From an uncultured Gammaproteobacteria bacterium (GTDB lineage Bacteria; Pseudomonadota; Gammaproteobacteria; Pseudomonadales; JAHEGP01): 64,000 nt of DNA. The stretch is taken from assembly GCA_963751595.1 (NCBI GenBank), contig CAVVVC010000001.1, forward strand, positions 875,741-939,740, read 5' to 3'. The translations under genes were made by a program, and so were the position numbers. Of the stretch, positions 24,615 to 43,728 are shown piece after piece (within the stretch, counting starts at the first letter, position 1; the number at the start of each line of letters is the position of its first letter). The notes under the pieces are model-generated. The model had not been told where the DNA came from, did not search any database, and saw only the letters and a list, made by a program, of their open reading frames with translations.

Positions 24615-25607
24615 CTAATCCAACGGGCTTTTAACGCCGCGCCCGCCCTTGTTCAGCACATGGGTATAGATTTCCGTTGTTGCGATATCGCTGTGGCCCA
24701 ACAATTCCTGAATGGTTCTCAGGTCGTAACCGTTTTCCAGCAGTCGCGTGGCGAAACTGTGGCGAAAGGTATGACAACTGGCGTGCTTGGCAATTCCAGA
24801 AGCCCTGATGGCATGGCGTACCCGCTTTTGCACGGCAGACGGATGAATGTGATGGCGCCGAAGCACCCCGGTGCCCGACTCGGCACCGGGCCGTGAAGCC
24901 GGAAAAAGAAAAGCCCATGCCAGAGACCGGGCAGCATGGGGAGATTTGCGCGCCAGCGCATGGGGCATCCAAACCTCGCCCCAGCCCATTTGCAGGTCGT
25001 ATTCGTGCAGTATGCGCACTGCCGTCACCTGCCGTTGCAGTGGCTCCAGCAGTGACACGGGCAACAACGTTACCCGGTCGCGATTGCCCTTACCCTGGCG
25101 CACGGTCAATTCCTGCATACCGAAATCGACATCTTTTACCCGTAGGCGGCAACACTCCATCAGGCGCAAACCCGACCCGTACAACAAACGGACCATGAGC
25201 CCGGCCATCTCCCCCTCGATAAGTTCAATGACCCGCAGCGCCTCGGCATGGGTAAAAACCACCGGGGGCCGCTTTCGATACCGGGGGCGAACATAGCTGA
25301 GGGCGCCGAACTCGACGCCAAGAAACTGGCGGTAAAGAAACACCAGCGCATTCAGCGCAATGCCCTGGGTAGCAGGAGAAACACGCCGGTGGGTAGCCAG
25401 CCAACTCAGGTAGCGATCGACGTCGTCTGCACCCAGATTCCCGGGATGTGTCTTTCGGTGAAAGCGAATGTAGTCGTAAATCCAGTGCAGGTAGGTTTTT
25501 TCCGTCGCATAGGCCAACTGCTTCGAGCGCATGAATTGGCGTAGCTGTTCAGACAGCCGCACCGGTGTGGATGCAACGGGCACAGGAATATCGCCCATAA
25601 TTATCAT
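24615..25607 (-). CDS. intI: Integron integrase IntI (tyrosine recombinase)
   Basis: Start chosen at ATG 25607 (GGAAGGA upstream). R-H-R-Y patches (GLRLMEC; HTFRHSFATRLL; LGHSDIATTEIYTHV). The integron-specific insertion HALARKSPHAARSLAWAFLFPA is present. A divergent cassette array follows. Confidence 0.9.
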   Translation of the reverse strand: MIIMGDIPVPVASTPVRLSEQLRQFMRSKQLAYATEKTYLHWIYDYIRFHRKTHPGNLGADDVDRYLSWLATHRRVSPATQGIALNALVFLYRQFLGVEFGALSYVRPRYRKRPPVVFTHAEALRVIELIEGEMAGLMVRLLYGSGLRLMECCRLRVKDVDFGMQELTVRQGKGNRDRVTLLPVSLLEPLQRQVTAVRILHEYDLQMGWGEVWMPHALARKSPHAARSLAWAFLFPASRPGAESGTGVLRRHHIHPSAVQKRVRHAIRASGIAKHASCHTFRHSFATRLLENGYDLRTIQELLGHSDIATTEIYTHVLNKGGRGVKSPLD

Positions 25608-25629
25608 CTCGTTTGTCCTTCCCTGGAGC

Positions 25630-25664
25630 ATGTACATATATACAGTATTGGCGAGTTTAGTCAA
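25630..25664 (-). promoter_or_regulatory. Putative PintI promoter with overlapping LexA (SOS) box
   Basis: Minus strand reads TTGACT-N16/17-TATATA about 25 nt upstream of the intI ATG. CTGTATATATGTACAT (25630-25645) matches CTGT-N8-ACAG at all but one core position. Confidence 0.5.
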
Positions 25665-25859
25665 CCCGTTCACGAGCCATCGCGGTGTATGTCGGCGGTG
25701 GTGGTGATAAACGATTGAAATGGAGAAGGTTTTCACCATGGTTAAAACAGGCGGAGGGAACAACAACAATGGCCACCGCTCTCTTCGACAGAAAACAGAA
25801 TATTCCCCTAATACGTAGGGCTTTGATAGTATTGGAGATTTACGAGGATGGCGTGAAAA

Positions 25860-25920
25860 CGATGACAACATACACGGCAAAAAGCTTATATCGCTTTGGC
25901 CACATATTCAGCTGTTACAG
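25860..25920 (+). other. attI region with crossover core GTTACAG (25914-25920)
   Basis: First GTTRRRY core after intI. The heptamer is the exact reverse complement of the R'' box (CTGTAAC) of cassette 1. The 5' extent of attI is not defined. Confidence 0.5.
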
Positions 25921-26212
25921 TTCATGTCATCGGAGATTTGGAATATCGTAAACTCAGAGTAAGGTGTTACCGGTTAAGAATTAGGCCGGCATCAAGGAGA
26001 GCGCTAACTATGAACCCCCACCGTTCGTTCCTGGTGCCACCGCAGAGTAGGGCGCCAATCCAGGTTTTACCGCACTCGTCAACGGGTGCCAGTATTCGGC
26101 TCAAGCCTTCGCTTGCGCTCCGGCAACCTGGCACTGTTTTATATCAGCCAGCCGTACCTGTAACCAGGCAGGGCATAGGACGCGCAAACACCGCGCGCCC
26201 ATGCCTGCAGCG
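25915..26212 (+). repeat. ORF-less cassette family, copy 1 (298 bp, includes attC1)
   Basis: Homologous over its full length to 26213-26510. No credible ORF. Confidence 0.8.
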
Positions 26213-26218
26213 TTACAG
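26158..26218 (+). other. attC1
   Basis: R'' CTGTAAC ... R' GTTACAG, 61 bp, internal GC palindrome CGCGCAAACACCGCGCG. Confidence 0.75.
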
Positions 26219-26510
26219 TTCGGGTCATCGGAAATTTGGAATATCGTAAACTCAGGGTAATGTATTACCGGTAAAGTATCAGGCCGGCATCAAGGAGAGC
26301 GCTAACTATGAACCCCCACCGTTCGTTCCTGGTGCCACCGCAGAGTAGGGCGCCACTCCAGGCTTTACCGCACTCGTCAACGGGTGCCAGTATTCGGCTC
26401 AAGCCTTCGCTTGCGCTCGGGCAACCTGGCACTGTTTTATATCAGCCAGCCGTACCTGTAACCAGGCAGGGCATAGGACGCGCAAACACCGCGCGCCCAT
26501 GCCTGCGGCG
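26213..26510 (+). repeat. ORF-less cassette family, copy 2 (298 bp, includes attC2)
   Basis: Tandem to copy 1. The core from GGCCGGCATCAAGGAG onward differs at only about 3-4 positions. Confidence 0.8.
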
Positions 26511-26516
26511 TTATGC
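26456..26516 (+). other. attC2
   Basis: R'' CTGTAAC ... R' GTTATGC, 61 bp, near-identical to attC1. Confidence 0.75.
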
Positions 26517-26531
26517 AACTAAGGAAGAAGA

Positions 26532-26948
26532 GTGGAGTATTTGTACATAGTAGGTACTTTCATTGCCTTCATCGTTGTGGGCGCTATTTTTCGTCATAGG
26601 AAAATGAGTCGAATCGCTTTGGAAAGAGGTGATTCGAATATTTGTGAATTTGCGCGCTCGTTCAATTATCGAAAAATTGATACAAAGATCATCCGAGAAG
26701 TGTGGAATGAGGTACAGGAAGCCTTGGGAAGCTATCACGGTAAAAAGTTTCCAGTTAAAGCCGATGACCTTTTCGTAAAAACATATAACCTTGATCCTGA
26801 TGACTTAGATGAGGCGTATTGGGCTATCGCGGATAAGCTTGGTATTAGCACTGATGAGCCTGAAAATAACCCATATTGGAATAAAGTTAATTCCGTAGAA
26901 GATTTGGTCAAATTCTTACATCATCAGCCTAGGGTAGAAAATGCATAA
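26532..26948 (+). CDS. Cassette 3: hypothetical N-terminally membrane-anchored protein
   Basis: 138 aa. GTG start with AAGGAAGAAGA just upstream, one TM helix (YLYIVGTFIAFIVVGAIF). AT-rich, no recognised domain. Confidence 0.55.
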   Translation: MEYLYIVGTFIAFIVVGAIFRHRKMSRIALERGDSNICEFARSFNYRKIDTKIIREVWNEVQEALGSYHGKKFPVKADDLFVKTYNLDPDDLDEAYWAIADKLGISTDEPENNPYWNKVNSVEDLVKFLHHQPRVENA

Positions 26949-27097: not shown

Positions 27098-27829
27098 ATG
27101 CAAATTTTCTTGTCGTATGCCTCTGAGGATCGCTCGCTCGCCGAAGAGATACAGCTTGCATTGATCGGAGCCGGACACGCCGTATTCTTTGATAAAGCAA
27201 GTTTGCCCGCTGGGGGAGATTATCATTCAAGGATTGAGGCAGCCGTAAAGCGATGCGACTTGTTTGTTTTTCTAATCAGTCCCAACTCAGTCGCTTCAGG
27301 AAGCTACGCCCTCACAGAGCTGAAGTTCGCTCGTTCAAATTGGCATCACCCTAAAGAAAGGGTATTGCCGGTCCGGCTGCATAGTACAGCGTGGGAGGTA
27401 ATACCACCCTACCTAAAATCAGTCACAGTTCTTGAGCCTGAGGGCAACATTCCAGCAGAGATTCTCGGTGCTGTTTCAACAATAGCTATTAGCGATGCCA
27501 TTGGTGAAGCATCGGAATCGAAAGAAACAACGATCCCTGCTAGTAGTACACACGAAAGCGGTTCACGTGAAAACGGGAATCATGCAGTTCAGATCTGGAT
27601 TGCGATTATCGGGCTTGTTAGTGCATTGGGAGTGGCGTTGATTGCGAATTGGAGTTCTATATTTCTTCCCGGACCTTCCAGCTCAAGCTCTGTTGCTCAA
27701 GGCATGAAGGGCCCAGATACCGGTAGCTCACAATCTCAGACCCTAAACGAGTGCCCTGAGACGACCGAGTATGACTACTCAAAGGTTCCACCAGAGTCAC
27801 GAATTGTTAAGCGATGCCCCCCTCAATAA
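27098..27829 (+). CDS. Cassette 4 gene 1: TIR-domain protein with C-terminal transmembrane helix
   Basis: ATG 27098 with TGGAG upstream. TIR-like N-terminus MQIFLSYASEDRSLAEEIQLALIGAGHAVFFDK...DLFVFLISPNSVASGSYALTELKFA. TM helix VQIWIAIIGLVSALGVALIANWSSIFL, then a Ser-rich tail. Confidence 0.7.
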   Translation: MQIFLSYASEDRSLAEEIQLALIGAGHAVFFDKASLPAGGDYHSRIEAAVKRCDLFVFLISPNSVASGSYALTELKFARSNWHHPKERVLPVRLHSTAWEVIPPYLKSVTVLEPEGNIPAEILGAVSTIAISDAIGEASESKETTIPASSTHESGSRENGNHAVQIWIAIIGLVSALGVALIANWSSIFLPGPSSSSSVAQGMKGPDTGSSQSQTLNECPETTEYDYSKVPPESRIVKRCPPQ

Positions 27830-29141: not shown

Positions 29142-29181
29142 GGCCTAATTGAAATGACATCGCAAGATATTAAATATTTGT

Positions 29182-30866
29182 GTAACTACTCACCCCCTCC
29201 ATCAAAAAAAGCTTGACAGGTTTTTCGCCGCATCCTTTTCGTAAATCCAGATGGCTGCCAAATACGCAGCGTGTAGCGGCACAGTGCCGGCATAAGCATT
29301 GATCTTCATGGTTACGAAAAAGCACTAGTCGAGACCATTATTCTTGCTCCTGCGCCTTCCTGAGTTGCCGAAAAAACCCATGATATATTGCGTTATCGAC
29401 GCAATCGTATCGCAACGACATGGCCAGCATTAATACCTCCTCGGTTCGTGAAGAACTTGACCGGCTGAAAAACGAATTCAAGCGACTGTCTTCTGAGCAG
29501 AAGATTTCTGGTGAAATCACATTGCTGATGAGCAGTATGCTCACGCTGCTGGAACTGATTTGCGCGATCTTTCTGGAGAAGTCGACCACCAAAAATAGCC
29601 AGAACTCCAGCAAGCCCTCGTCTCAAACGGACAAGGATGAAACAGCACTGGGTCAGCCTGGCAGCAAGGCAAAAGGCAAGACGGAACGCCGGCAGTCCGC
29701 TTACAACACGCGCACCATCGAAACGACAAGCGTTGCAGTGGTAAGCACCTGCGATATCTGTGGTGAAGATCTCACCGGCACCGCCTGCCTTAAACATGAG
29801 CGGCGCACCAAAATCGATATCATTTTTGAGAAGACGGTCGAGCATGTGGATGCCGAGATCAAGCACTGCTCAGTCTGTTCTGCCGAGGTCAAAGGCCAGT
29901 TTCCTTCGGACATGCCCGGGCCGTTGCAATATGGCAATGGGTTGAAGGCCTACGTGATTAACATGCTGGTCTGCCAGATGGTCGCATTGAACCGGGTACA
30001 AAAAGCAGTGAGCGCGATGATCGGCCAGGTGATCTCCGAAGCGACCCTGCTCAAGTACGTCCTGCGACTCCACGAGGCGCTGGCCGACTGGGAGAAGGAT
30101 GCGATCAGGCAGCTATTGCAGAGCCCTGCGATGCACGTGGATGAGACGTCGTTGCGAGTTGATCAGAAAAATCACTGGATACATGTCTATGCAGCCGATG
30201 ACATCACCTTGAAACGACTGCATCGAAAACGGGGCAAGGAAGCGATAGAGGCGATTGATATCATTCCTCGATACGGCGGCGTGATCATCCATGATTGCTG
30301 GGCATCCTATTTATCCTATGCACATTGCGGACACGGTTTGTGCGGATCGCACCTGTTGCGTGAGCTGACGTTTATCGTCGAGTCCAATGGTTATATCTGG
30401 GCAAAAAATATGAAGCGCGCCCTGCAGGAAACCTGCAAGGCTGTTTCGGCAAGCCCTGACAAGTGTCTCCGCGATGACGCCTACGCGAACTTGCAAAAAC
30501 GCTATCGGGCTATTTTGACGCGCGGCGAGAAGGAACTTCCGGTGATACCGGACAGGCCGCAGGGAAAGCGCGGGAAAATGGCTAAGTCGGACGCACACAA
30601 CTTGTGGGAGCGACTCAAAGAGCACGAGCAAGCGGTATTATTGTTTGCCAAAGAGGGCCATGTGGCTTTCACCAACAACCGTGCCGAGCGGGATCTTCGA
30701 ATGTCGAAGGTCAAGCAGAAAGTATCCGGTTGTTTCAGAAACAGCCAATACGCTGACGCCTATTGTCGAATATCCAGTTACCTGCAGACCATGGCGAACA
30801 AGGGGCACAACCCGCTGATTGCCATTCAGATGGCACTGGCAGGGGAGATGGGGGGCGAGTAGTTAC
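29182..30866 (+). mobile_element. IS66-family insertion sequence, copy 1 (single-ORF, ISBst12-like group)
   Basis: 1685 bp. Terminal inverted repeats GTAACTACTCACCCCC / GGGGGCGAGTAGTTAC. Flanked by the 8-bp direct repeat ATATTTGT (29174-29181 and 30867-30874). Confidence 0.85.
29420..30862 (+). CDS. IS66-family transposase
   Basis: 480 aa with N-terminal coiled coil, zinc-finger-like CDICG...CSVC, and DDE region DETSLRVDQKNHWIHVY...IIHDCWASY. No tnpA or tnpB accessory ORFs. Confidence 0.85.
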   Translation: MASINTSSVREELDRLKNEFKRLSSEQKISGEITLLMSSMLTLLELICAIFLEKSTTKNSQNSSKPSSQTDKDETALGQPGSKAKGKTERRQSAYNTRTIETTSVAVVSTCDICGEDLTGTACLKHERRTKIDIIFEKTVEHVDAEIKHCSVCSAEVKGQFPSDMPGPLQYGNGLKAYVINMLVCQMVALNRVQKAVSAMIGQVISEATLLKYVLRLHEALADWEKDAIRQLLQSPAMHVDETSLRVDQKNHWIHVYAADDITLKRLHRKRGKEAIEAIDIIPRYGGVIIHDCWASYLSYAHCGHGLCGSHLLRELTFIVESNGYIWAKNMKRALQETCKAVSASPDKCLRDDAYANLQKRYRAILTRGEKELPVIPDRPQGKRGKMAKSDAHNLWERLKEHEQAVLLFAKEGHVAFTNNRAERDLRMSKVKQKVSGCFRNSQYADAYCRISSYLQTMANKGHNPLIAIQMALAGEMGGE

Positions 30867-31308
30867 ATATTTGTTATTTTTCATGGTAAGCATTTTGGTC
30901 TTTGCGCTAGCTTTAATGTATGACCAGAAGGTTATGCTTGTCATTTCAGGGCTATTCGTCGCATTATTTTTATGGCACTCATCAAGCAACCTAATTTATG
31001 CGTCTAAACATAATGTAGGCTATGTATCCAAATTGCTTAACTCGGCAATTGCAGAAAATGATCCTGACAACGTCTTAAATGACCCGAGTGATCCAGATTA
31101 CAGTGAGTTTGAAGCATTTTCCGGTGTGCCTATTATCAACAATAAACAACTAAATAAAATCCGCTTAAGGTGCCACTATCTCATAAACGATGATGAGTAT
31201 TTCAATCACCGAGACGACGATAATTACACTCTATTTGTTACCGATAAAGGCAAGCAAGAGCTCACAAAACTTATTAATGAAATTAAGGATAACTATGAAA
31301 AATCGGCC

Positions 31309-32544: not shown

Positions 32545-32805
32545 ATGAAGTTCCAATATGACCAGATAAAGAGCGCCTCCAATCTCAAGAAACATGGGAT
32601 TGATTTTGAGCGGGCTCAATTGCTTTGGGATGACCCGAACTTGGTGGAATTGGCAGCAAGATCTGTCGACGAGCCAAGATCATTCGTTATTGCTCGCTTA
32701 AATGGTCAGTACTGGTCCGCCATATTTACAAATCGAGATGACGAGATTCGATTAATTTCGGTGAGGCGATCTCGAAAAGTTGAGGTAGAGCTCTATGAAG
32801 GCTAA
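32545..32805 (+). CDS. brnT: Cassette 9: BrnT-family toxin (DUF497)
   Basis: 86 aa. FQYDQIKSASNLKKHGIDFERAQLLWDDPN...IRLISVRRSRKVE matches the BrnT pattern. Confidence 0.75.
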   Translation: MKFQYDQIKSASNLKKHGIDFERAQLLWDDPNLVELAARSVDEPRSFVIARLNGQYWSAIFTNRDDEIRLISVRRSRKVEVELYEG

Positions 32806-33028: not shown

Positions 33029-33070
33029 AGGCTGCCGACGGTTTCACCGGCGCAGCTTTAAGCGTTAATT
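33016..33070 (+). other. attC9
   Basis: R'' CCCTAAC ... R' GTTAATT, 55 bp. R'' complements the cassette-9 start GTTAGGG. Confidence 0.8.
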
Positions 33071-33076
33071 GCCCTC

Positions 33077-33106
33077 TTGAGCATCGCAACGCTATAACGT
33101 TATAAT
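33077..33106 (+). promoter_or_regulatory. Cassette-10 TA promoter with operator palindromes
   Basis: TTGAGC (33077-33082), N18, TATAAT (33101-33106). Palindrome ATAACGTTAT (33094-33103) is nested in AACGCTA...TAGCGTT. Confidence 0.5.
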
Positions 33107-33132
33107 GCCCTAGCGTTGTTGCGGAGGTCGCT

Positions 33133-33366
33133 ATGAGCAATTTGTCAAAGCGCTCAACTATCTATTTTGAGCCCAATATCCACCAAGCCCTGAAAGTTCG
33201 GGCTGCATCGTCACATTTGTCCGTGTCTGAGCTTGTTGACGAGGCGGTCCGTCTCCTTATGAGTGAGGACCAAGAAGACCTGGCAGCATTCTCTGAGCGA
33301 GAGAGCGAAAAGGAGATTAGCTATGAAGCCTTGCTTAACGATTTAAAGAAGCATGGCAAAATTTAG
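33133..33366 (+). CDS. Cassette 10: RHH antitoxin (RelB/ParD-like)
   Basis: 77 aa with GGAGG RBS. STIYFEPNIHQALKVRAASSHLSVSELVDEAVRLLM is an RHH motif. Confidence 0.7.
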   Translation: MSNLSKRSTIYFEPNIHQALKVRAASSHLSVSELVDEAVRLLMSEDQEDLAAFSERESEKEISYEALLNDLKKHGKI

Positions 33367-33616
33367 GATTACCTTTAAGAAATCTGTTGCCAAAGACTTA
33401 CGGAGCATCCCTCCAGCAGACGTTAAACGTATTTTGCAAAGAATCGAAATACTTGCAGAGAACCCAAGAGGGGAAGGGTGCGTCAAATTATCAGCCGAGG
33501 AACGGTATAGGGTGCGCCAAGGAGTTTACCGTGTTGTCTATGAAATCCGTGATGAATCTCTCGTTGTACTGGTGGTAAAAGTTGCTCACCGATCAGTCGT
33601 TTACAAGGGCAATTAA
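33353..33616 (+). CDS. relE: Cassette 10: RelE/ParE-family toxin
   Basis: 87 aa, overlaps the antitoxin by 14 nt. FKKSVAKDLRSIP...YRVRQGVYRVVYEIRDESLVVLVVKVAHR is the RelE/StbE pattern. Confidence 0.75.
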   Translation: MAKFRITFKKSVAKDLRSIPPADVKRILQRIEILAENPRGEGCVKLSAEERYRVRQGVYRVVYEIRDESLVVLVVKVAHRSVVYKGN

Positions 33617-33667
33617 CAGGGCCATGTTGCGGACAACTTTCAGTCGCCGCAAATGGCGGCGTTAGGC
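33611..33667 (+). other. attC10
   Basis: R'' AATTAAC (overlaps the relE stop) ... R' GTTAGGC, 57 bp. R'' complements the cassette-10 start GTTAATT. Confidence 0.8.
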
Positions 33668-33766: not shown

Positions 33767-35480
33767 AGAGCCTGCTCATAAACTTGCCAGCAGTGCATTT
33801 TCCAGCGCCAGGCGCCGCCACTGCTCCACCCACGCCCGCCATTGCTCAACGCAAGTTTTGACGCGGTTCGGGAGCCCGTGCTCTCCTCCAGCCCTGGTCT
33901 TTCTCCAGAGCCAATAAAACACCTCCAACAGGATCAACAGGTTCATCACCAGAAAGATGCTGTTGATCCACGCCCTGGACGTATCGGATCGCTTCGCCCG
34001 GATGTAGTTGAGTCGGTAGCCGTTCTTGCCCTGACCGAACTTGCCCTCAATCGGAATCCGCTGCAGATACGCTTCGCGTCGCATGGCTGCCAGCCGTTTC
34101 AGCGCCCCCTGGTTTTCCTCGGTCACTTTCTTCGGCCTGCCCAGGGGCTTTCCTGCAAAACGGATGCCGCGGTCTTTGAGGTATCGACGGTTGTCAGTCC
34201 CGGCTACCGTAAAGCGTGTCGCCCAGAACCACTGCAGGATAAACACCATGATGCTCCCGATAGGCCTCGACTTGTGAGGGCAAGTCATGGCCTTCATGGA
34301 AAGCATCCCACCGCAGGTGATCGACTCGCGCCACACCGTCACCGGTGAGGCTGACACTGAGCTTGGCACCGAACTCCGTCGGCTTGTCCACTTTGCCGCG
34401 GACAATCGGCCGCACGTACGGCTGGCTGATGCTCACGATGCGATCATCGCAACGTCTGGTCTTGCTGTGGTACATCGCCCACTGTTGAGCAAACACATGC
34501 TGGATCACCCAGTACCGGTGCAACAACCAGCGTGGCAAGGGTAATGGCCTATAAGCCGGAAAGTGCGTTAACAGCTGCTCAATGTGGCCCAGGTTGCGGC
34601 GCAGGTACTGCAGCTGTTGCTTGATGCCACGGCGTATCAACTTTGCGCCCGGGCGCTTCTTCTTCACGATGGCGAGGTAGGCCTTGCGCGCTTTGTGCCG
34701 GTAGGTCCGGGGCTTATGCGTCAGCCCTGCCTTGGCATAGAGCCGGTCGATGATCTGTTCGCTGAACTCCCTGGCCTCATTCAGCAGGCTAAGGTCTGTC
34801 GGGAAGCGGATCGCCTGTGGTGCAACGGTGGCATCGAGGATCAGCTTTCCCTGATGCGTCGCTTCTTCTGCGGTAGGCGCCGGCTCGCCAGCCGAGCCCC
34901 CCGGTGGCGGGTTATCGTCGTTCTCCGCCGGTGTTTGCCGCTTTGCCACCCCCTTCTTCGCTTTGTCTTGCTCCACAGCCTCAATGACCGCCTCATAAAA
35001 AACATCAAACACGGATTGCCCCATACGCTTGCGGATCTCGACAAACAGCGACGGGACGAAAGGGGCTTCCATCTGATAACCGGGCAAGCCGACGAAGTAT
35101 TGGAGATAGGGGTTTTCCTGAATCTGTGCCACGGTCTCCCGGTCGGAGAGGCTCAGCTTGTGCTTGATAATCACAGCACCAATGACCAGGCGGGCATCTT
35201 TGGTCGGCCGCCCCTGTGTGCTGGAAAGGCCTTCGTAATAGGCCTCGGCCAGCGCGTCCCAGGGAATGCACTGACTCATCTTAATCCAGCGGTTGTTTTC
35301 ATCCAGCGCGGTCTGGAAGGGCCAATCAAACTCTGCCAGGGAGAGCTGACGATGACTCTGTGTTCGGATCATGGGTGCACGCTTTTTAAAGGCGGGGGCT
35401 TGTTTTTCGTGCACCATTGTACCCCTGAAACGAGCAAATACCTATATGAATCAATGTTTTAAGGTTTATGAGCAGGCTCT
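33767..35480 (-). mobile_element. IS1182-like (IS5-related) insertion sequence
   Basis: 1714 bp with perfect 17-bp terminal inverted repeats AGAGCCTGCTCATAAAC. Flanked by the 4-bp direct repeat ATTT (33763-33766 and 35481-35484). Confidence 0.8.
33776..35372 (-). pseudogene. IS1182/IS5-type DDE transposase, frameshifted
   Basis: The N-terminal ORF (MIRTQSHRQLSLAEFDWPF...GDTLYGSRD*) stops at 34194. The sequence continues in another frame as DNRRYLKDRGIRFAGKPLGRPKK.... The junction reads GGTAGCCGGGACTGACAACCG. Confidence 0.7.
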
Positions 35481-36502
35481 ATTTATTGGCTCTTCTTCCG
35501 AAGGGCTAGAAGTTGCCCGGCAAGTACAGGTTACCCTCGATGATCAGGACATACAGGTTGTTGTTTGGGATCAGGGTGTGTTTGAGCCCGGAAAGTCGTA
35601 CTTATCCGCTCTGTTAGAGGCGACTGAGAGTTTCGATTTTGCGGTGCTGGTACTCTCTTCAGACGACGCCATAGTCTCTCGCGGTACAGAATACGATGCC
35701 CCACGCGATAATGCGTTGATCGAGCTAGGCCTGTTCCTAGGCTCTATAGGTAGAGATCGAACGTTTTTCTTGTATGATAAAAATAGTCCACCGAAAATGG
35801 CTTCGGATTTGGCCGGTATTTGCGGCGTTACGTACTTTGGTAATGCAGAAAATATACGTGCAGCAGTTGGAAGCGCGTGTACGATTATCCGCGAAAGAAT
35901 TCACAAGTTAGGAGCCATCCCTCATGAGTCATCATTTAAAATAATTAATGACCCAAAGATATTATGCGTAGGTGGGGAGCGACTTTCCGATCTGGGCTTT
36001 GCAAAAGACTATGAAATTCTACGGAAATTGTTCAATCATGTGGAAGGGGAGAGCCAAGCAACAAGTCATTGGTTGCGAAAAAAGCTTTTTCAGGAGCAGT
36101 TCGATTTGATTCACGTTTGTGCCACGGTAGATCCGAATACAGGAGATTTAGTTCTATCCCAGGATGATCGTATGGCTCCTAGTGCTTTTGGTGCAGCTGT
36201 AAAGAGATCTGAAACAAATTTGGTCGTCCTTGCAGGTTGTAACTCGGTTCAACTTGCAGAGCACGTCGCTCGAGTTACCAACATGGTCGCAGCGACACGT
36301 ACCGCTGCTATCAATGTGTTCGTGGAATGGGAAGTGATATTTTACCTGTTGCTCAGCAAGGGTGAGCTACTATCGAAAGTGCACGATGAAGCTAAGGCAG
36401 CAACAGGCGCCCCGGTTATTTTATTGCCAAAGAATGACGTTGCGTTCCAAAGTATTGGTTCTACCACATGATTAAATTCTTGTGTTTTGTCTGTGCGTAC
36501 TC

Positions 36503-37639: not shown

Positions 37640-38686
37640 CTATCCGGACATAAGTTTCTGCCTGTTGAACCCAACCACCACCATCGGTGACTGGCATCGT
37701 TGGCACAAAAATGACGGTCTTTGAGTTGCTTTGACTAACGGTAGCGGGACCTGCAGTAGCCACTGCACGCGTTGCAATAGTCGCTTGGCGTTGCCATGCA
37801 AGAACCCATAGTCACGTGAGCGCCGGAAGCCTTTGGGTAAGGTGTGTTGTAACACCAGCGCTAGAAAATCCTCGCCGCGCATGCGGCGTGTTTTCCTCGT
37901 TTGGGTTTCGCTGTCCTGGTACGCGAAGGTCACGTAGTTGCCATCGTCATTAAGAATCTGCGAGTTGCTTATCACACCGCGATAGAGATACCGGGACAGG
38001 TATTGCAGGGCCGGTAGTCCATGCCCTACACGCTCACAGTGCACCACCCACTTCTTTGGAGTTTTGGGGACAGTCAGCCCAGCCTGTTGCAGGGCAGAGA
38101 GCAGCATGCCCCGGAATACCGTCGCCAGCTGAAAGCCGTTAAAGAGGTACTTGTCTTTCAGTTTGCGCCATTCGTTACGCCGCGTGTTCACTCCGCCACC
38201 GGGTACGATGATATGCACATGCGGGTGGTAGTCCAGCCGCCGGGTGTGGGTGTGTAATATCGCTGTCATGGCCAGCTCGGCGGCGAGACCTTTATCGTTC
38301 AGGCCAAACGTTTTTAGCGTTGCTACCGCACACTGAAACAGCAGCGAGTACACAGCTTTCTGGTTGGCTTTAGCCAGGGAGCGCAATTCGAAAGGGAGGG
38401 TGAACGTGACCATGAAATACTCGACCGGCAACAGCTTGCAGGCTTGCCGTTCCAGCCACTGCGTCGTGCAGTGGTTCTGGCAGCGGTTGCAGCTGCGGTG
38501 GCCGCACGATCGGTGGTGGGTGCTGCGCCAGGGGCAGGCCTTACAGGCTAATTGCAGCTCACCATACTGCTCGGTTCGACAGCCCATAATCGCATTGAGA
38601 GCCGACCATTGGTCTGGCATCGTGCTGGCACTGTGACTCGCTTTAAATCGGTCAAGATATCGGCATGCAATGCTGGCAACGTCCAT
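37640..38686 (-). CDS. IS91-family transposase (zinc-binding N-terminus + Y2 HUH domain)
   Basis: Start at ATG 38686. Cys-rich CKACPWRSTHHRSCGHRSCNRCQ, HUH-like HTHTRRLDYHPHVHIIVPGGG, and YLSRYLYRGVISN carrying the paired tyrosines. Confidence 0.8.
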   Translation of the reverse strand: MDVASIACRYLDRFKASHSASTMPDQWSALNAIMGCRTEQYGELQLACKACPWRSTHHRSCGHRSCNRCQNHCTTQWLERQACKLLPVEYFMVTFTLPFELRSLAKANQKAVYSLLFQCAVATLKTFGLNDKGLAAELAMTAILHTHTRRLDYHPHVHIIVPGGGVNTRRNEWRKLKDKYLFNGFQLATVFRGMLLSALQQAGLTVPKTPKKWVVHCERVGHGLPALQYLSRYLYRGVISNSQILNDDGNYVTFAYQDSETQTRKTRRMRGEDFLALVLQHTLPKGFRRSRDYGFLHGNAKRLLQRVQWLLQVPLPLVKATQRPSFLCQRCQSPMVVVGFNRQKLMSG

Positions 38687-38687
38687 G

Positions 38688-39593
38688 CTACGCCTCCCCA
38701 TCAAGTGAGAGGTTCAGTCGATTAACCAGCTTATTGATGAGCGTGTGCGTATTCTGCTGCGTGACCCCGGTTAACTGCGTGTAGAGGGCGGTGGTCTTCG
38801 GGCACTCGTGACCCATTTCGTGCTGAATGGCTCGCAAATTGACGCCGGCCTCCACCAGGTGAGCGCCATAGCTGTGACGTAGGCTGTGGATAGTGATGGG
38901 TTTGTGGATACCGCAGTCGCTGACAATGACCTTGACCGATTTCTGTAAACCGCCCCGGTCCATCGGGGACTTGGCTACGCGTCGCTCGACCGATGTTTTA
39001 CCCCCAGGAAACAGCAGCATCGGGTGGCGGTGCGTCACCCAGTACGCTCGCAAAGCGTGCAATGTGGCGTTGGGCAGAGTGACGAACCTGTCTTTCCGGC
39101 CTTTCCCCTGGCGTATGTGCACCTTCGCGCTTTCGCGATCGATATCGCCTACTCGCAGGTTCAAGGCTTCGCCAAGTCGCAGTCCCATGCTGTAGGCGGT
39201 AAGGATAAACGTTTGGTAGCGCAACTCCCGGGCGCCGTTAATCAGTCGCTCGACTTCCCTGAGTGTCAAAATATCCGGCAGCACTTTTTTTGTGGGCGGC
39301 TTGACGATATCGACCCAGGTCCATGTTTTGTTGAGCACGTGTTTGTAGAAGAACTGCAGGCCGTTGCGGTCGACTTTAACGGTGCTCCAGGAGTGGCTTT
39401 TAACCAGTGCGGTGAAGTAGTCTTTGAGTTGATCTTCCGTTAATCGATCGGGGCATTGATCAAAGAATTCTGTGATCCGGCGTACAGCTCTGGAATAGAC
39501 GTCGATCGTTGTAGCCGCCTTGCCTTGACGTTGCAATGCGCTAACATGGCGTTGGTACAGTGCGTTAAATTTGGTTTGCTGTGCTTTATTCAT
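38688..39593 (-). CDS. Tyrosine recombinase (phage-integrase family) coupled to the IS91 transposase
   Basis: Start at ATG 39593 (GAGGAG RBS). R/H-x-x-R/Y patches (MGLRLGEA; HSLRHSYGAHL; GHECPKTTALYTQ). The stop is 1 nt from the tnpA ATG. Confidence 0.8.
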   Translation of the reverse strand: MNKAQQTKFNALYQRHVSALQRQGKAATTIDVYSRAVRRITEFFDQCPDRLTEDQLKDYFTALVKSHSWSTVKVDRNGLQFFYKHVLNKTWTWVDIVKPPTKKVLPDILTLREVERLINGARELRYQTFILTAYSMGLRLGEALNLRVGDIDRESAKVHIRQGKGRKDRFVTLPNATLHALRAYWVTHRHPMLLFPGGKTSVERRVAKSPMDRGGLQKSVKVIVSDCGIHKPITIHSLRHSYGAHLVEAGVNLRAIQHEMGHECPKTTALYTQLTGVTQQNTHTLINKLVNRLNLSLDGEA

Positions 39594-39699
39594 GGGTAAC
39601 TCCTCGATGATCACACCCGCTATTGGGTTGTGTAGAGGAATTATCCTTCAGCGCTCAGGGAGAGCAGTGGTTGGTGCTATTCTGCCGCGTAGCGGCTTC

Positions 39700-39837: not shown

Positions 39838-40110
39838 ATGATAGAGTTCAGCTGGGAACAAACTAAAGTCCAAACCAACCTCAAGAAGCATGGTGTTTGT
39901 TTCGAGGGGGTCCGATCTGTCCTCTACGATGAATTTGCAGTTCAATGTTATGGTGCCGAGTCTTCTGAGGAGGACAGGTTTATTCTTCTTGGTCTAAGCA
40001 ATTTGCCTCGAGTACTGGTCGTTGTGCACTGCGAGCGAGGATGTCATCGAATATTTTTAGCGGATGGCAGAAAAATCCGGTGTTCACTATTAAAGTTTGA
40101 TCAATCGTAA
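39838..40110 (+). pseudogene. Cassette 14: degenerate BrnT-like toxin remnant, 3' end truncated by IS66-family copy 2
   Basis: MIEFSWEQTKVQTNLKKHGVCFEGVRSVLYDEF...RFILLGLSNLPRVLVVVHCER matches BrnT, but the C-terminus diverges (possible frameshift near 40040). The reading frame runs into the IS. No antitoxin partner remains. Confidence 0.5.
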
Positions 40111-41791
40111 CTACTCACCCCTCCATCAAAAAAAGCTTGACAGGTTTTTTCGCCGCATCCTTTTCGTAAATCCAGATGGCAGCCAAATGCGCAGCGTGTA
40201 GCGGCACAGTGCCGGCATAAGCATTGATCTTCATGGTTACGAAAAAGCACTAGTCGAGACCATTTTTCTTGCTCCTGCGCCTTCCTGAGTTGCCGAAAAA
40301 ACCCATGATATATTGCGTTATCGACGCAATCGTACCGCAACGAAATGGCCAGCATTAATACCTCCTCGGTTCGTGAAGAACTTGACCGGCTGAAAAACGA
40401 ATTCAAGCGACTGTCTTCTGAACAGAAGATTTCTGGTGAAATCACATTGCTGATGAGCAGTATGCTCACGCTGCTGGAACTGATTTGCGCGATCTTTCTG
40501 GAGAAGTCGACCACTAAAAATAGCCAGAACTCCAGCAAGCCCTCGTCTCAAACGGACAAGGATGAAACAGCACTGGGTCAGCCTGGTAGCAAGGCAAAAG
40601 GCAAGACGGAACGCCGGCAGTCCGCTTACAACACGCGCACCATCGAAGCGACAAGCGTTGCAGTGGTGAGCACCTGCGATATCTGTGGTGAAGATCTCAC
40701 CGGCACCGCCTGCCTTAAACATGAGCGGCGCACCAAAATCGATATCATTTTTGAGAAGACGGTCGAGCATGTGGATGCCGAGATCAAGCACTGCTCAGTC
40801 TGTTCTGCCGAGGTCAAAGGCCAGTTTCCTTCGGACATGCCCGGGCCGTTGCAATATGGCAATGGGTTGAAGGCCTACGTGATTAACCTGCTGGTCTGCC
40901 AGATGGTCGCATTGAACCGGGTACAAAAAGCAGTGAGCGCGATGATCGGCCAGGTGATCTCCGAAGCGACCCTGCTCAAGTACGTCCTGCGACTCCACGA
41001 GGCGCTGGCCGACTGGGAGAAGGATGCGATCAGGCAGCTATTGCAGAGCCCTGCGATGCACGTGGATGAGACGTCGTTGCGAGTTGATCAGAAAAATCAC
41101 TGGATACATGTCTATGCAGCCGATGACATCACCTTGAAACGACTGCATCGAAAACGGGGCAAGGAAGCGATAGAGGCGATTGATATCATTCCTCGATACG
41201 GCGGCGTGATCATCCATGATTGCTGGGCATCCTATTTATCCTATGCACATTGCGGACACGGTTTGTGCGGATCGCACCTGTTGCGTGAGCTGACGTTTAT
41301 CGTCGAGTCCAATGGTTATATCTGGGCAAAAAATATGAAGCGCGCCCTGCAGGAAACCTGCAAGGCTGTTTCGGCAAGCCCTGACAAGTGTCTCCGCGAT
41401 GACGCCTACGCGAACTTGCAGAAACGCTATCGGGCTATTTTGACGCGCGGCGAGAAGGAACTTCCGGCGATACCGGACAGGCCGCAGGGAAAGCGCGGGA
41501 AAATGGCTAAGTCGGACGCACACAACTTGTGGGAGCGACTCAAAGAGCACGAGCAAGCGGTATTATTGTTTGCCAAAGAGGGCCATGTGGCTTTCACCAA
41601 CAACCGTGCCGAGCGGGATCTTCGAATGTCGAAGGTCAAGCAGAAAGTATCCGGTTGTTTCAGAAACAGCCAATACGCTGACGCCTATTGTCGAATATCC
41701 AGTTACCTGCAGACCATGGCGAACAAGGGGCACAACCCGCTGATTGCCATTCAGATGGCACTGGCAGGGGAGATAGGGGGCGAGTAGTTAC
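40107..41791 (+). mobile_element. IS66-family insertion sequence, copy 2
   Basis: 1685 bp, near-identical to copy 1 with the same terminal repeats. Flanked by the 8-bp direct repeat GATCAATC (40099-40106 and 41792-41799). Confidence 0.85.
40345..41787 (+). CDS. IS66-family transposase (copy 2)
   Basis: 480 aa, four amino-acid differences from copy 1 (T/A, M/L, V/A, M/I). Confidence 0.85.
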   Translation: MASINTSSVREELDRLKNEFKRLSSEQKISGEITLLMSSMLTLLELICAIFLEKSTTKNSQNSSKPSSQTDKDETALGQPGSKAKGKTERRQSAYNTRTIEATSVAVVSTCDICGEDLTGTACLKHERRTKIDIIFEKTVEHVDAEIKHCSVCSAEVKGQFPSDMPGPLQYGNGLKAYVINLLVCQMVALNRVQKAVSAMIGQVISEATLLKYVLRLHEALADWEKDAIRQLLQSPAMHVDETSLRVDQKNHWIHVYAADDITLKRLHRKRGKEAIEAIDIIPRYGGVIIHDCWASYLSYAHCGHGLCGSHLLRELTFIVESNGYIWAKNMKRALQETCKAVSASPDKCLRDDAYANLQKRYRAILTRGEKELPAIPDRPQGKRGKMAKSDAHNLWERLKEHEQAVLLFAKEGHVAFTNNRAERDLRMSKVKQKVSGCFRNSQYADAYCRISSYLQTMANKGHNPLIAIQMALAGEIGGE

Positions 41792-41852
41792 GATCAATCT
41801 ATATTTGCGGGATTGTGCCAGTCATCATCGAAAAGTTGATCTTACATGTCAG

Positions 41853-41907
41853 CCTTAACAAGCAAAGGCAACGGACGGTCTCAACACGGTTGCTTTGAGC
41901 GTTAGCT
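41853..41907 (+). other. attC14
   Basis: R'' CCTTAAC ... R' GTTAGCT, 55 bp. Confidence 0.75.
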
Positions 41908-41942
41908 CGATCCGTCAATATTCAAACAGCAGCAGGATTAAA

Positions 41943-43409
41943 ATGAACAGGATATTCAATAGAGCCATAATTGCCGCATTCTCCCTATTTGCAATAACGT
42001 CAGCCTCAGCAGGAGAATCGCCCTATAATTTTAAACGAGGGTTCCCTGCGGACGCAGCAACCATTGAAAAGGCACACGCTGCCACTTCGCTCCGCCGCGC
42101 GATCGAAGCCTACAAGTTTTTCTTTCCGACGGTCGCCACCGAGGCGGTGATCCAGCAGTTTATACCTCACGGCGCGGTTCCAAACAAATTCGGAATCATA
42201 ATGCCGCAGGATCCGGAGCAGCAGTTCTCTGTAGCCAACCAGGACACGCCTTACATCATCAGTGTGTTCGATCTCAGGGACGGTCCCATTGTGATTGAAG
42301 TTCCCGAGGGTCCATTCATGGGGCTAATGAACGATCACCACATGGAGTGGTTCGGCGACATGGGCGTCATCGGCCCTGGCAAGGGCAAGGGCGAGAAAGA
42401 CCTGCTCGTTCCTCCCGGCTACGACAAGGAGATCCCGGATGGCTACCACCCGTTCTACAGCAAGACCTGGGAGTCCGTCATGGCAATGCGCGTCGTCGTC
42501 AACTCCGGCTCCTATGAGGAGGCGGTTGAGCTTGCTCAGAAGATCAAAGTCTACCCCCTCAGCGAGGCGGGCAAACCATCGAACTACAAGATCATCAATG
42601 TAAAAGGTCAGGCAGCGCCGCTTCCGATGCTGAAATGGGAGAAGAGCATGGACTACTGGACACAGCTCCACGCGGTAGTCGACAGGGAAACCGCCCGGCC
42701 CAAGCACCGCGCCATGCTCGGGATGCTGGCAGAAGTCGGTATCAAGAAAGGCCAGCCCTTCAAGCCGGACGCACGTATGAAACGCATTCTCACCGAAGCG
42801 GCCGCGACAGGATTTGGCGAAATGAACGTCGCCTTCTTTGCCAACCCTCGTCCCGAGCGGCTGATCTGGGAGGACCGGCTGTGGGAATCGGTTCCTCTTT
42901 CCGGTCCGCTCGATCCGGAAACCAGGGAATTCGGCGATGCCAACCACCGCGACCTCCTCGCCAACGACCACTACTTTTTCATGGCATGGGGCACCTCGGC
43001 CGGGATCGGCCGCCGCCAGGTCGGCCAGGGCTCGCTCTATTTCACTGGCCTCAAAGACAGCGCCGGCACTTACCTGGACGGCGGTAAGAATTACAAGCTG
43101 AACATCCCGGGGCCGGTTCCCGCCAAACTCTTCTGGTCGGTAACAGTCTACGACTCGGAGACGCGGACCATCATCAACTCCGGCCAGGGCCGCGGCGCAG
43201 TCCGCACCATGTTCGAGAACCCGCGACCAAATGCCGACGGTTCGTTCGACATCTTCTTCGGCCCCGACAAGCCGTCCGATGACAGAGAGGACCACTGGAT
43301 CAAGACCATTCCCGGCAAGGGCTGGTTCACCTTTTTACGAATGTATGGCCCCGAAGCGCCCGTTTTTGATGGTACCTATAAGCTTCCAGACATTGAAATG
43401 TTAGAGTGA
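41943..43409 (+). CDS. Cassette 15: secreted DUF1254/DUF1214-domain protein
   Basis: Start at ATG 41943 (MNRIFNRAIIAAFSLFAITSASA signal peptide). LRRAIEAYKFFFPTV...QDTPYIISVFDLRDGPIVIEVP...LFWSVTVYD fits the DUF1254+DUF1214 architecture. Confidence 0.7.
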   Translation: MNRIFNRAIIAAFSLFAITSASAGESPYNFKRGFPADAATIEKAHAATSLRRAIEAYKFFFPTVATEAVIQQFIPHGAVPNKFGIIMPQDPEQQFSVANQDTPYIISVFDLRDGPIVIEVPEGPFMGLMNDHHMEWFGDMGVIGPGKGKGEKDLLVPPGYDKEIPDGYHPFYSKTWESVMAMRVVVNSGSYEEAVELAQKIKVYPLSEAGKPSNYKIINVKGQAAPLPMLKWEKSMDYWTQLHAVVDRETARPKHRAMLGMLAEVGIKKGQPFKPDARMKRILTEAAATGFGEMNVAFFANPRPERLIWEDRLWESVPLSGPLDPETREFGDANHRDLLANDHYFFMAWGTSAGIGRRQVGQGSLYFTGLKDSAGTYLDGGKNYKLNIPGPVPAKLFWSVTVYDSETRTIINSGQGRGAVRTMFENPRPNADGSFDIFFGPDKPSDDREDHWIKTIPGKGWFTFLRMYGPEAPVFDGTYKLPDIEMLE

Positions 43410-43444
43410 TTTCTTTGCCTTGAGAGCAAACTCACGGGGATACG

Positions 43445-43496
43445 AGTTAACAAGGGCATGCAGACGACTTCGGCAATCGCTATGCGCTTGTGAGGT
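43445..43496 (+). other. attC15 (non-canonical R')
   Basis: R'' AGTTAAC ... R' GTGAGGT, 52 bp. The arms GAGTTAACAAGGGCATGC and GCTATGCGCTTGTGAGGTC are complementary. Confidence 0.6.
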
Positions 43497-43728
43497 CGGC
43501 ATCAAGGAGAGAACTAGCTATACCCCCCCATCGTTCGTTCCTGGTGCCACCGCAGAGTAGGGCGCCACTCCAGGCTTTACCGCACTCGTCAACGGGTGCC
43601 AGTATTCGGCTCAAGCCTTCGCTGGCGCTACGGCAACCTGGCAGGGTTTTTTATCAGCCTGCCGTCCCTGTAACCAGGCAGGGCATAGAGCGCGCAAAAA
43701 CAGCGCGCCCATGCCTGCGGCGCCAAGT
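43491..43728 (+). repeat. ORF-less cassette family, copy 3 (5'-truncated, includes degenerate attC16)
   Basis: Starts at GGTCGGCATCAAGGAG. A roughly 105-nt block is identical to copy 2. The ATG of the spurious ORF reads ATA here. Confidence 0.75.
43668..43728 (+). other. attC16 (degenerate R', probable end of array)
   Basis: R'' CTGTAAC ... R' GCCAAGT. Otherwise homologous to attC1 and attC2. Confidence 0.6.

Follow-up and report, generated by a model that had tools for sequence, protein, structure and literature searches.

The window, by which we mean the whole 64-kb stretch of DNA analysed here, harbors a sedentary chromosomal integron. The integrase gene, intI, lies next to an attI region and an array of cassettes, of which the first two are closely similar and form the subject of this report. 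Relatives of the integrase include one Logan match that is 99% identical (P0002) and many sequences labelled as integron integrase in Gammaproteobacteria MAGs. Cassettes further downstream encode TIR-domain proteins, DUF4019 and a metallo-beta-lactamase-fold protein, together with toxin-antitoxin cassettes of the RelE/HTH, HigB/HTH, BrnT and RHH/ParE types. The integron array is broken up by insertion sequences. In the general integron model, the first position of the array is transcribed from Pc. The features at the start of the array are listed below, with a slash at the crossover point.

24615-25598, minus strand: intI, integron integrase, 327 aa from the ATG at 25598 (PF13495 and PF00589)
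25599-25914, plus strand: attI region, ending ...CAGCTG/TTACAG, recognised from its sequence and conserved in the contigs L001 (94%) and L007 (96%)
25630-25645, within the attI region: LexA-box-like ATGT-N8-ACAG, with the same box in L008
25915-26212, plus strand: cassette 1, 298 bp (repeat finding, self-BLAST, alignment)
26213-26510, plus strand: cassette 2, 298 bp (repeat finding, self-BLAST, alignment)
26213-26280 (cassette 1: 25915-25982), plus strand: AT-rich head, 38-39% GC, missing from copy 3
26282-26339 (cassette 1: 25984-26041), plus strand: predicted 5' hairpin, in which GGCAUCAAGGAG pairs with UUCCUGGUGCC, enclosing the Shine-Dalgarno sequence and ATG
26292-26297, plus strand: Shine-Dalgarno sequence AAGGAG, with the ATG at 26308-26310
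26308-26550 (cassette 1 equivalent ends at 26249), plus strand: mechanical ORF of 80 aa, crossing the attC into cassette 3, with no coding signal
26436-26444 (cassette 1: 26138-26146), minus strand: antisense extended -10-like motif TGATATAAA, a consensus match only
26158-26218, plus strand: attC of cassette 1, 61 nt, with perfectly complementary R'' (CTGTAAC) and R' (GTTACAG)
26456-26516, plus strand: attC of cassette 2, with R' GTTATGC, its final six bases coming from cassette 3

Cassettes 1 and 2 are head-to-tail copies that are 95-96% identical (E 4e-138 in self-BLAST); the repeat search and self-BLAST set their limits at 25914-26211 and 26212-26509, and those of the third copy at 43493-43722. 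An earlier note on this DNA, made from the sequence alone, had described both as 298 bp long and homologous throughout, which repeat finding and self-BLAST bear out. It had also placed most of their differences in the 5' part, and the alignment indeed puts 9 of them within the first ~70 nt, against 4 over the other ~228 nt. The 298-bp unit is built from the 68-nt AT-rich head, a ~175-nt GC-rich body (60% GC), which opens with the Shine-Dalgarno sequence and ATG, and the 61-nt attC.

The limits of the cassettes follow the G/TTRRRY crossover rule, with the junctions reading CAGCTG/TTACAG (25914/25915), GCAGCG/TTACAG (26212/26213) and GCGGCG/TTATGC (26510/26511). The cassette coordinates given earlier match this convention exactly, and the G/TT flanks, the canonical attC and the neighbouring intI and attI uphold the claim that the pair adjoins attI and belongs to the integron. 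All the features of integron cassettes are present: crossover sites, a folding attC, an array adjoining intI and attI, and varied array contexts. The attC sites were located by a scan and inspection by eye. When folded as bottom-strand ssDNA, the attC of cassette 1 has bulged stem bases and reaches -20.7 kcal/mol (z -5.5), a stability attained by 0 of 200 shuffles.

The first bases of the head, TTACAG, are the partner of the R'' box of the same cassette, with G plus TTACAG being the exact complement of CTGTAAC. The integrase would cut at G/TT and move the cassette as a circle, and in this excised circle the TTACAG of the head would complete an R' box perfectly complementary to the cassette's own R''. 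For this reason the entire 298 bp, including the head, is taken as the mobile unit. A decayed attC was also considered as the identity of the head and is ruled out, since the head has no ssDNA structure (z about 0). The 298-bp repeats are mobile integron cassettes, and by evolutionary criteria fit a gene-less (ORF-less) family of a kind already described in other integrons.

Copies of the cassette within and beyond the window

The ENA contig L001, reached via the sole protein-level relative of the long ORF, shares the attI and has the element as its first cassette and again as its fifth, the second of these being cut by the contig end. The fifth-position copy comes after an RHH/ParE cassette with 99% identity to positions 33060-33664 of the window. 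L008 has an IntI that is just 79% identical, and its third cassette opens with the same 28 nt as the head, at 96% identity, before the contig ends. Two further contigs were found by look-up with neighbouring cassette proteins: L019, which begins inside another, partial copy upstream of a BrnT cassette, and L025, which reproduces the junction of copy 3. The same kind of look-up found no record for the 138-aa protein of cassette 3. Because the element is found at other array positions in these four metagenome contigs, it moves as a cassette, and does so between arrays.

The family is present in at least three integron lineages, with two to three copies per array.

Further copies are scarce. None was detected by nhmmer in any other fetched locus, and back-translated pattern scans of GTDB genomes and JGI metagenome contigs gave no true match. 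Exact 19-mer scans of genome and metagenome contigs returned five chance matches only (L002-L006, judged by eye and BLAST), and no match to the element was found in the plasmid and phage collections. Contigs with IntI relatives that are 65-80% identical (L007-L015) mostly break at attI, with only L008 reaching the start of the element. The cassette family is real, mobile and rare. A fragment of an IS, MITE, REP or plasmid is ruled out as the source of the repeats, as all three copies in the window lie inside the array at or next to attC boundaries; their absence from the plasmid and phage collections counters it too.

Over the columns common to four copies, cassette 2 is nearer to the L001 copies than to cassette 1, with 6 differences in 151 from L1_b and 11 in 151 from cassette 1. 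Because of this, the tandem pair at attI reflects insertions of two already diverged members of the family and not a fresh duplication. Divergence is greatest in cassette 1, which has 7 substitutions of its own within alignment columns 1-172. At two sites the copies sort by type (cassette 1 with L1_a, cassette 2 with L1_b) and at three they sort by organism, a pattern that fits old paralogues with some homogenization inside each genome.

The third copy in the window lies at 43.5 kb, next to the last gene cassette of the array.

41902-43492: DUF1254/DUF1214 cassette, starting at GTTAGCT (41901), with the gene ATG at 41943
43447-43496, plus strand: vestigial attC of the DUF1254/DUF1214 cassette, TTAACAAG ... 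CTTGTGAGG, which folds weakly
43493-43721, plus strand: copy 3, comprising the 3' ~230 nt only, 90-91% identical, without the head and with the ATG reading ATA

A TAACAAG-type R'' box, as found in most attC sites of the array, is present 38 nt past the DUF1254/DUF1214 stop codon, and its partner is only vestigial (CTTGTGAGG). The homology of copy 3 to the element begins exactly at this vestigial partner, which is position 69 of the cassette. Copy 3 holds the last recognisable attC of the array; its R'' (CTGTAAC, 43668-43674) fits the missing head and not the present 5' end, and the R' position that follows (43722-43728) reads GCCAAGT. No attC was recognised downstream of copy 3. The arrangement suggests a decaying copy, in which a deletion would have taken the upstream attC end along with the head of the element, thereby fusing copy 3 to the last gene cassette. 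The alternative of an independent 229-bp cassette, starting from a degenerate GTTAGGC-like site, is ruled out by the pairing of R'' with the TTACAG of the missing head.

Over the central 91 nt, cassette 2 and copy 3 agree at every position, and the flanks of copy 3 differ by 17-20%. Such identity calls for either gene conversion or selection, and gene conversion within the genome would explain the pattern. In the independent L001 copy, the centre has 4 changes in 91 positions against 2 in 40 for the 5' flank, so the centre is no better conserved there.

Coding capacity, RNA structure and promoter signals

Gene-less cassettes have been defined by the absence of an annotated gene and of any ORF exceeding 210 bp (PMC11014356). 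From the ATG to the cassette end there are 67 codons (203 bp), and mechanical ORFs get to 80 and 117 aa only if they extend into the following cassette or take a start in attI, upstream. Several details of the long ORF had been described earlier and are confirmed here: AAGGAG precedes the ATG (here measured as 10 nt upstream, at both 26010 and 26308), the frame continues across the attC in both tandem copies, and the alignment shows the ATG of the third copy as ATA. The three differences in the ORF body between the tandem copies are, as had been stated, all non-synonymous (I/L, V/A and R/G), and a fourth ORF difference, within the attC, is Q/R.

The view that protein coding is unlikely is upheld, and strengthened to very unlikely, by several lines of evidence, to which the lost ATG of copy 3 belongs. 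In the ORF frame, pN/pS is 0.92 when all pairs among the four alignable copies are taken together, and none of the frames on either strand falls below 0.56. The L001 copy has a 1-nt indel, and the resulting frameshift ends the ORF after 50 codons at the R'' box, without crossing the attC. A protein family is also lacking. Among 5.8 billion clusters and 1.84 billion representatives, the only relative of the plus-strand ORF is the L001 element, and a HMMER scan of the 1.84 billion representatives returned the L001 copy and one spurious repeat protein only. The protein search with the 55-aa ORF of the minus strand was empty. A pseudogene of a known family is ruled out, as there is no Pfam match in any frame. 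By these evolutionary criteria, the sequence comparison fits a non-coding cassette of the gene-less class.

It is nonetheless conceivable that the ORF is translated, as a small protein or as a leader. The Shine-Dalgarno sequence is kept in 5 of the 5 copies that cover it and the ATG in 4 of 5, and the predicted hairpin that would sequester the Shine-Dalgarno sequence is fully preserved. The ORF could encode a fast-evolving basic peptide, or it could serve as a leader, in the manner of ORF-11 of attI1, on which translating ribosomes would open up the attC hairpin for the cassette that follows. For such a leader a neutral peptide sequence would be expected if the act of translation alone matters, and in cassette 2 the frame, once across the attC, ends 18 nt inside the cassette-3 ORF. 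Against this, however, the ORF of L001 stops at the R'' box and does not reach across the attC, the downstream partner differs in every copy, and the near-neutral pN/pS and the lack of homologues beyond the element itself argue against a functional peptide. A third variant would be a type I toxin, with an antisense transcript as antitoxin. Type I toxins are mostly hydrophobic, whereas this peptide is rich in Pro, Arg, Ser and Ala and has no hydrophobic segment; given also its neutral evolution, and with the antisense promoter being a motif only, a type I toxin-antitoxin pair is not supported. Taken together, translation of the ORF as peptide, leader or toxin is highly doubtful.

The earlier note had put forward the pair as a candidate structured RNA, and this idea is not borne out: Rfam gives no match, folding is at the level of shuffled sequence, and the plus strand has no compensatory pairs. 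At gathering thresholds, Rfam had no match in the whole 64-kb window, including to sRNA-Xcc1 and group II intron domains; at E <= 10, the region 25850-26560 gave one chance match in attI, scoring 17 bits against a gathering score of 45. ARAGORN found nothing. With both Rfam and ARAGORN empty, a group IIC-attC intron fragment and a tRNA-like element are ruled out. Once its attC is removed, the cassette body is no more stable in folding than shuffles (z +0.36 and +0.44 on the two strands), and the whole cassette gives z -0.6 on the plus strand and -0.8 on the minus strand. From these scores it follows that the attC, which acts at the DNA level, is the only strong structure. In the 3' half of the cassette, the MFE fold differs between copies, with z +0.15 in L001.

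The covariation check that had been proposed was run with RNAalifold and pair counting, and found 0 compensatory pairs on the plus strand and 1 on the minus strand, in an alignment of four sequences whose mean column identity of 96% leaves such tests near powerless; the searched collections hold only 4-6 copies, at 86-96% identity. On the plus strand, changes that break pairs are about as frequent as those that keep them, with 6 one-sided changes preserving G-U or A-U pairs, and on the minus strand breaking changes predominate. A helix had been suggested between AGGCTT (26360-26365) and AAGCCT (26401-26406). The positions are correct and the AGGTTT of copy 1 does retain G-U pairing, but the helix is not conserved, as it is broken by a T.T mismatch in L001. 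An intrinsic terminator before the attC was considered as well, and is ruled out by the inconsistent prediction of a long hairpin plus U-tract across the copies.

One local structure is predicted in all copies, namely the 5' hairpin (dG -19 kcal/mol, z -1.65). Its helix of 16 pairs is 100% paired, with 2 one-sided changes, and all 9-10 substitutions in and around it are loop changes or pair-keeping, a weak and post hoc result in that the hairpin was derived from the same sequences as were used to assess it. The kept Shine-Dalgarno sequence, ATG and modelled hairpin hint at some constraint on translation initiation.

A structured or trans-acting sRNA, made in the sense direction from Pc or from an antisense promoter, has a few points in its favor. 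The first position of the array is where transcription from Pc would be expected. Conservation within the element is highest in the central 91 nt, and the one-sided changes on the plus strand keep pairing. There is also an integron-encoded precedent in Xanthomonas, as sRNA-Xcc1 is a trans-acting sRNA from the Xanthomonas campestris integron (Chen et al. 2011, cited in PMC8876359). The empty Rfam search, the shuffle-level folding of the body and varying folds of its 3' half, the pair counts, the disrupted helix and the lack of an intrinsic terminator common to all copies weigh against it, and we regard an sRNA as very unlikely.

Promoters offer a different reason for which the cassette might be kept. 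The only promoter-like signal common to the copies is the antisense motif TGATATAAA, which points towards attI and intI; it is kept in cassettes 1 and 2, L001 and L019, and is weakened to TGATAAAAA in copy 3. As a possible antisense extended -10 promoter, it would read at the first position through attI into intI, which is on the same strand, and at inner positions it would silence upstream cassettes. The AT-rich head, so unlike the body in its GC content, is in keeping with a promoter, and there are published precedents. Most of the Vibrio gene-less cassettes that have been tested show promoter activity, antisense in one case (PMC11014356), and Treponema ORF-less cassettes carry antisense promoters, proposed to raise intI expression from the first position (PMC6557892; PMC8876359). 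By analogy with these published gene-less cassettes, a cis-regulatory role is plausible (PMC11014356, PMC6557892). The standard sigma-70 consensus scan of 25500-26700, however, gave no site on either strand, against 1.6 in shuffles, and a separate motif scan turned up no sense-strand candidate common to the copies. The -35 beside TGATATAAA, TGGTTA, agrees with the consensus at 3 of 6 positions, and such a T-rich stretch could be anything; promoter calls made in silico in cassettes, moreover, do not predict activity (PMC11014356). Retention of the cassette for a promoter is accordingly possible, if on the unlikely side.

A more elaborate proposal combines these elements into a regulatory module that tunes the integron, either with the Shine-Dalgarno hairpin and antisense -10 as a leader controlling read-through, or with antisense feed of intI. 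We consider this distinctly improbable. If it were true, the Shine-Dalgarno-sequestering hairpin and antisense promoter would form a riboregulated or translated leader controlling read-through into the next cassette, and an antisense promoter at the first position would in part circumvent the LexA-controlled promoter and increase the shuffling of cassettes.

A probable relic cassette and its known counterparts

The reading we prefer, to which we assign a probability of about 0.5, is that of a gene-less cassette, the relic of a small gene cassette, which circulates through a very proficient attC and whose effects on its neighbours would be transcriptional. We infer from the sequences that the body derives from a small gene cassette and has persisted through its attC, and any promoter activity is put forward on the same footing. 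A phenotype, if there is one, would arise via the transcription or translation of neighbouring cassettes; the pair may, for instance, act as a spacer, separating Pc from the first coding cassette by two attC hairpins. A hint against the relic comes from the recurrence of the family in at least three lineages, at two to three copies per array, which exceeds expectation for pure junk unless the attC makes the family unusually mobile. The kept Shine-Dalgarno sequence and ATG with their hairpin, and the identical centre of cassette 2 and copy 3, also count against it.

The current picture of integrons is unchanged by these results, which are chiefly useful as a worked negative for the structured-RNA proposal. 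Gene-less cassettes are common, making up 6-49% of Vibrio arrays (PMC11014356, PMC6557892, PMC8876359), but beyond Vibrio and Treponema few have been examined. The 298-bp cassette is unusually small and GC-rich, heads the array of two related integrons and turns up in several arrays. It is a convenient test case for distinguishing selected regulators, such as promoters and leaders, from efficient attC hitch-hikers.

In comparison with known systems, the closest likeness is to the gene-less cassettes of Vibrio and Treponema (Blanco et al. 2024, PMC11014356; Tansirichaiya et al. 2019, PMC6557892). Like these, it forms an entire cassette, with canonical attC and no credible gene, occurs more than once and at various places within sedentary chromosomal arrays, and may have originated from a degenerated gene cassette, as some of the Vibrio cassettes have (PMC11014356). 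It differs in size, with 298 bp and a 61-nt attC against 491-666 bp and attC sites of 101-127 nt in the gene-less cassettes that have been studied. Its body is GC-rich, its sense strand carries no promoter consensus, its sequence shows no similarity to theirs, and its host is an uncultured gammaproteobacterium-like organism.

A second likeness is to fused cassettes such as blaGES-1/aacA4, in which fusion arises by attC loss (PMC8876359). Copy 3 is similarly joined to the DUF1254/DUF1214 cassette via a truncated attC, whereas here the downstream partner is gene-less and lacks 68 nt of its own 5' end, with its terminal R' box destroyed too. Finally, sRNA-Xcc1 resembles the present element in being a non-coding sequence inside an integron cassette array. 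The 298-bp element differs from it in having no match to any Rfam family and in showing no sign of a conserved fold.

Cargo cassettes

The toxin-antitoxin cassette coding for RHH and ParE proteins was examined in the window and in L001 (an ENA metagenome contig), L016-L024, L027 and L028. Its window copy (33060-33664) is 99% identical to that of L001 (1319-1923), and in the public collection 31 blocks contain exactly this antitoxin sequence, beside many different cassettes. The cassette is a widely circulating one. The BrnT cassette (32545-32805) displays the same pattern of sharing. Two further cassettes encode TIR-domain proteins, one TIR_2 and one a CAP12/Pycsar-effector-type TIR, and possibly represent anti-phage defence cargo of the array.

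27098-27829 and 35371-36471: the two TIR-domain protein cassettes

Insertion elements within the array

Two copies of a 1,685-bp IS66-family element, 99% identical to each other, are found inserted within array cassettes. The element codes for a single transposase ORF of 480 aa (PF03050), and each copy is bordered by an 8-bp target duplication. The array also harbors two other mobile elements, one of which is accompanied by a second tyrosine recombinase.

29182-30866: first IS66-family copy; duplication ATATTTGT at 29174-29181 and 30867-30874
33776-35417 (-): DDE transposase divided between two overlapping ORFs (PF13586, PF05598)
37640-39614 (-): IS91-family Y2 transposase (PF04986 and PF14319) beside a tyrosine recombinase (PF00589 and PF13495)
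40107-41791: second IS66-family copy; duplication GATCAATC at 40099-40106 and 41792-41799

Recombination sites and the array end

The attC stem of the gene-less cassette is well preserved across its copies, unlike the adjoining stretch of around 12 nt directly 5' of the R'' box (window 26141-26164, with equivalents in the second and third copies, L001 and the partial copy of contig L019), which is hypervariable and reads GCCGTACCTG, GCCGTCCCTG, GCCGCCTCTG or GTCGCATCTA. Two consecutive attC sites of L001 (476-487 and 876-887) finish in GCTTTAAAG and GCTTTATGT, with TTT in place of the canonical R' GTT, and these are either unusual core sites or the product of an assembly error. At the start of the first cassette, CAGCTG is followed by TTCGTG in L001 (186-200) and by TTACAGTTCATG in the window (25909-25925), such that the L001 cassette begins 6 nt later; from the sequence, it looks as if recombination had occurred at the second GTT of GTTACAGTTC, or as if 6 bp had been deleted.

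43668-43728: last recognisable attC, R' box replaced by GCCAAGT
44873-46540: SulP/STAS permease gene, the next clear gene

In the last attC the sequence departs immediately 3' of the crossover G, and no further attC-like site was recognised between 43728 and about 44870. This altered site may mark the end of the array, or it may reflect a deletion, mediated by the integrase, that extends to a secondary site.

A LexA-like box upstream of the integrase gene

25630-25645: LexA-box-like ATGT-N8-ACAG (ATGTACATATATACAG), located 32 nt ahead of the start of intI

Because this motif is present here and is kept in L008, a contig whose IntI is only 79% identical, the sequence suggests that the integrase is under SOS control, as in other integrons.
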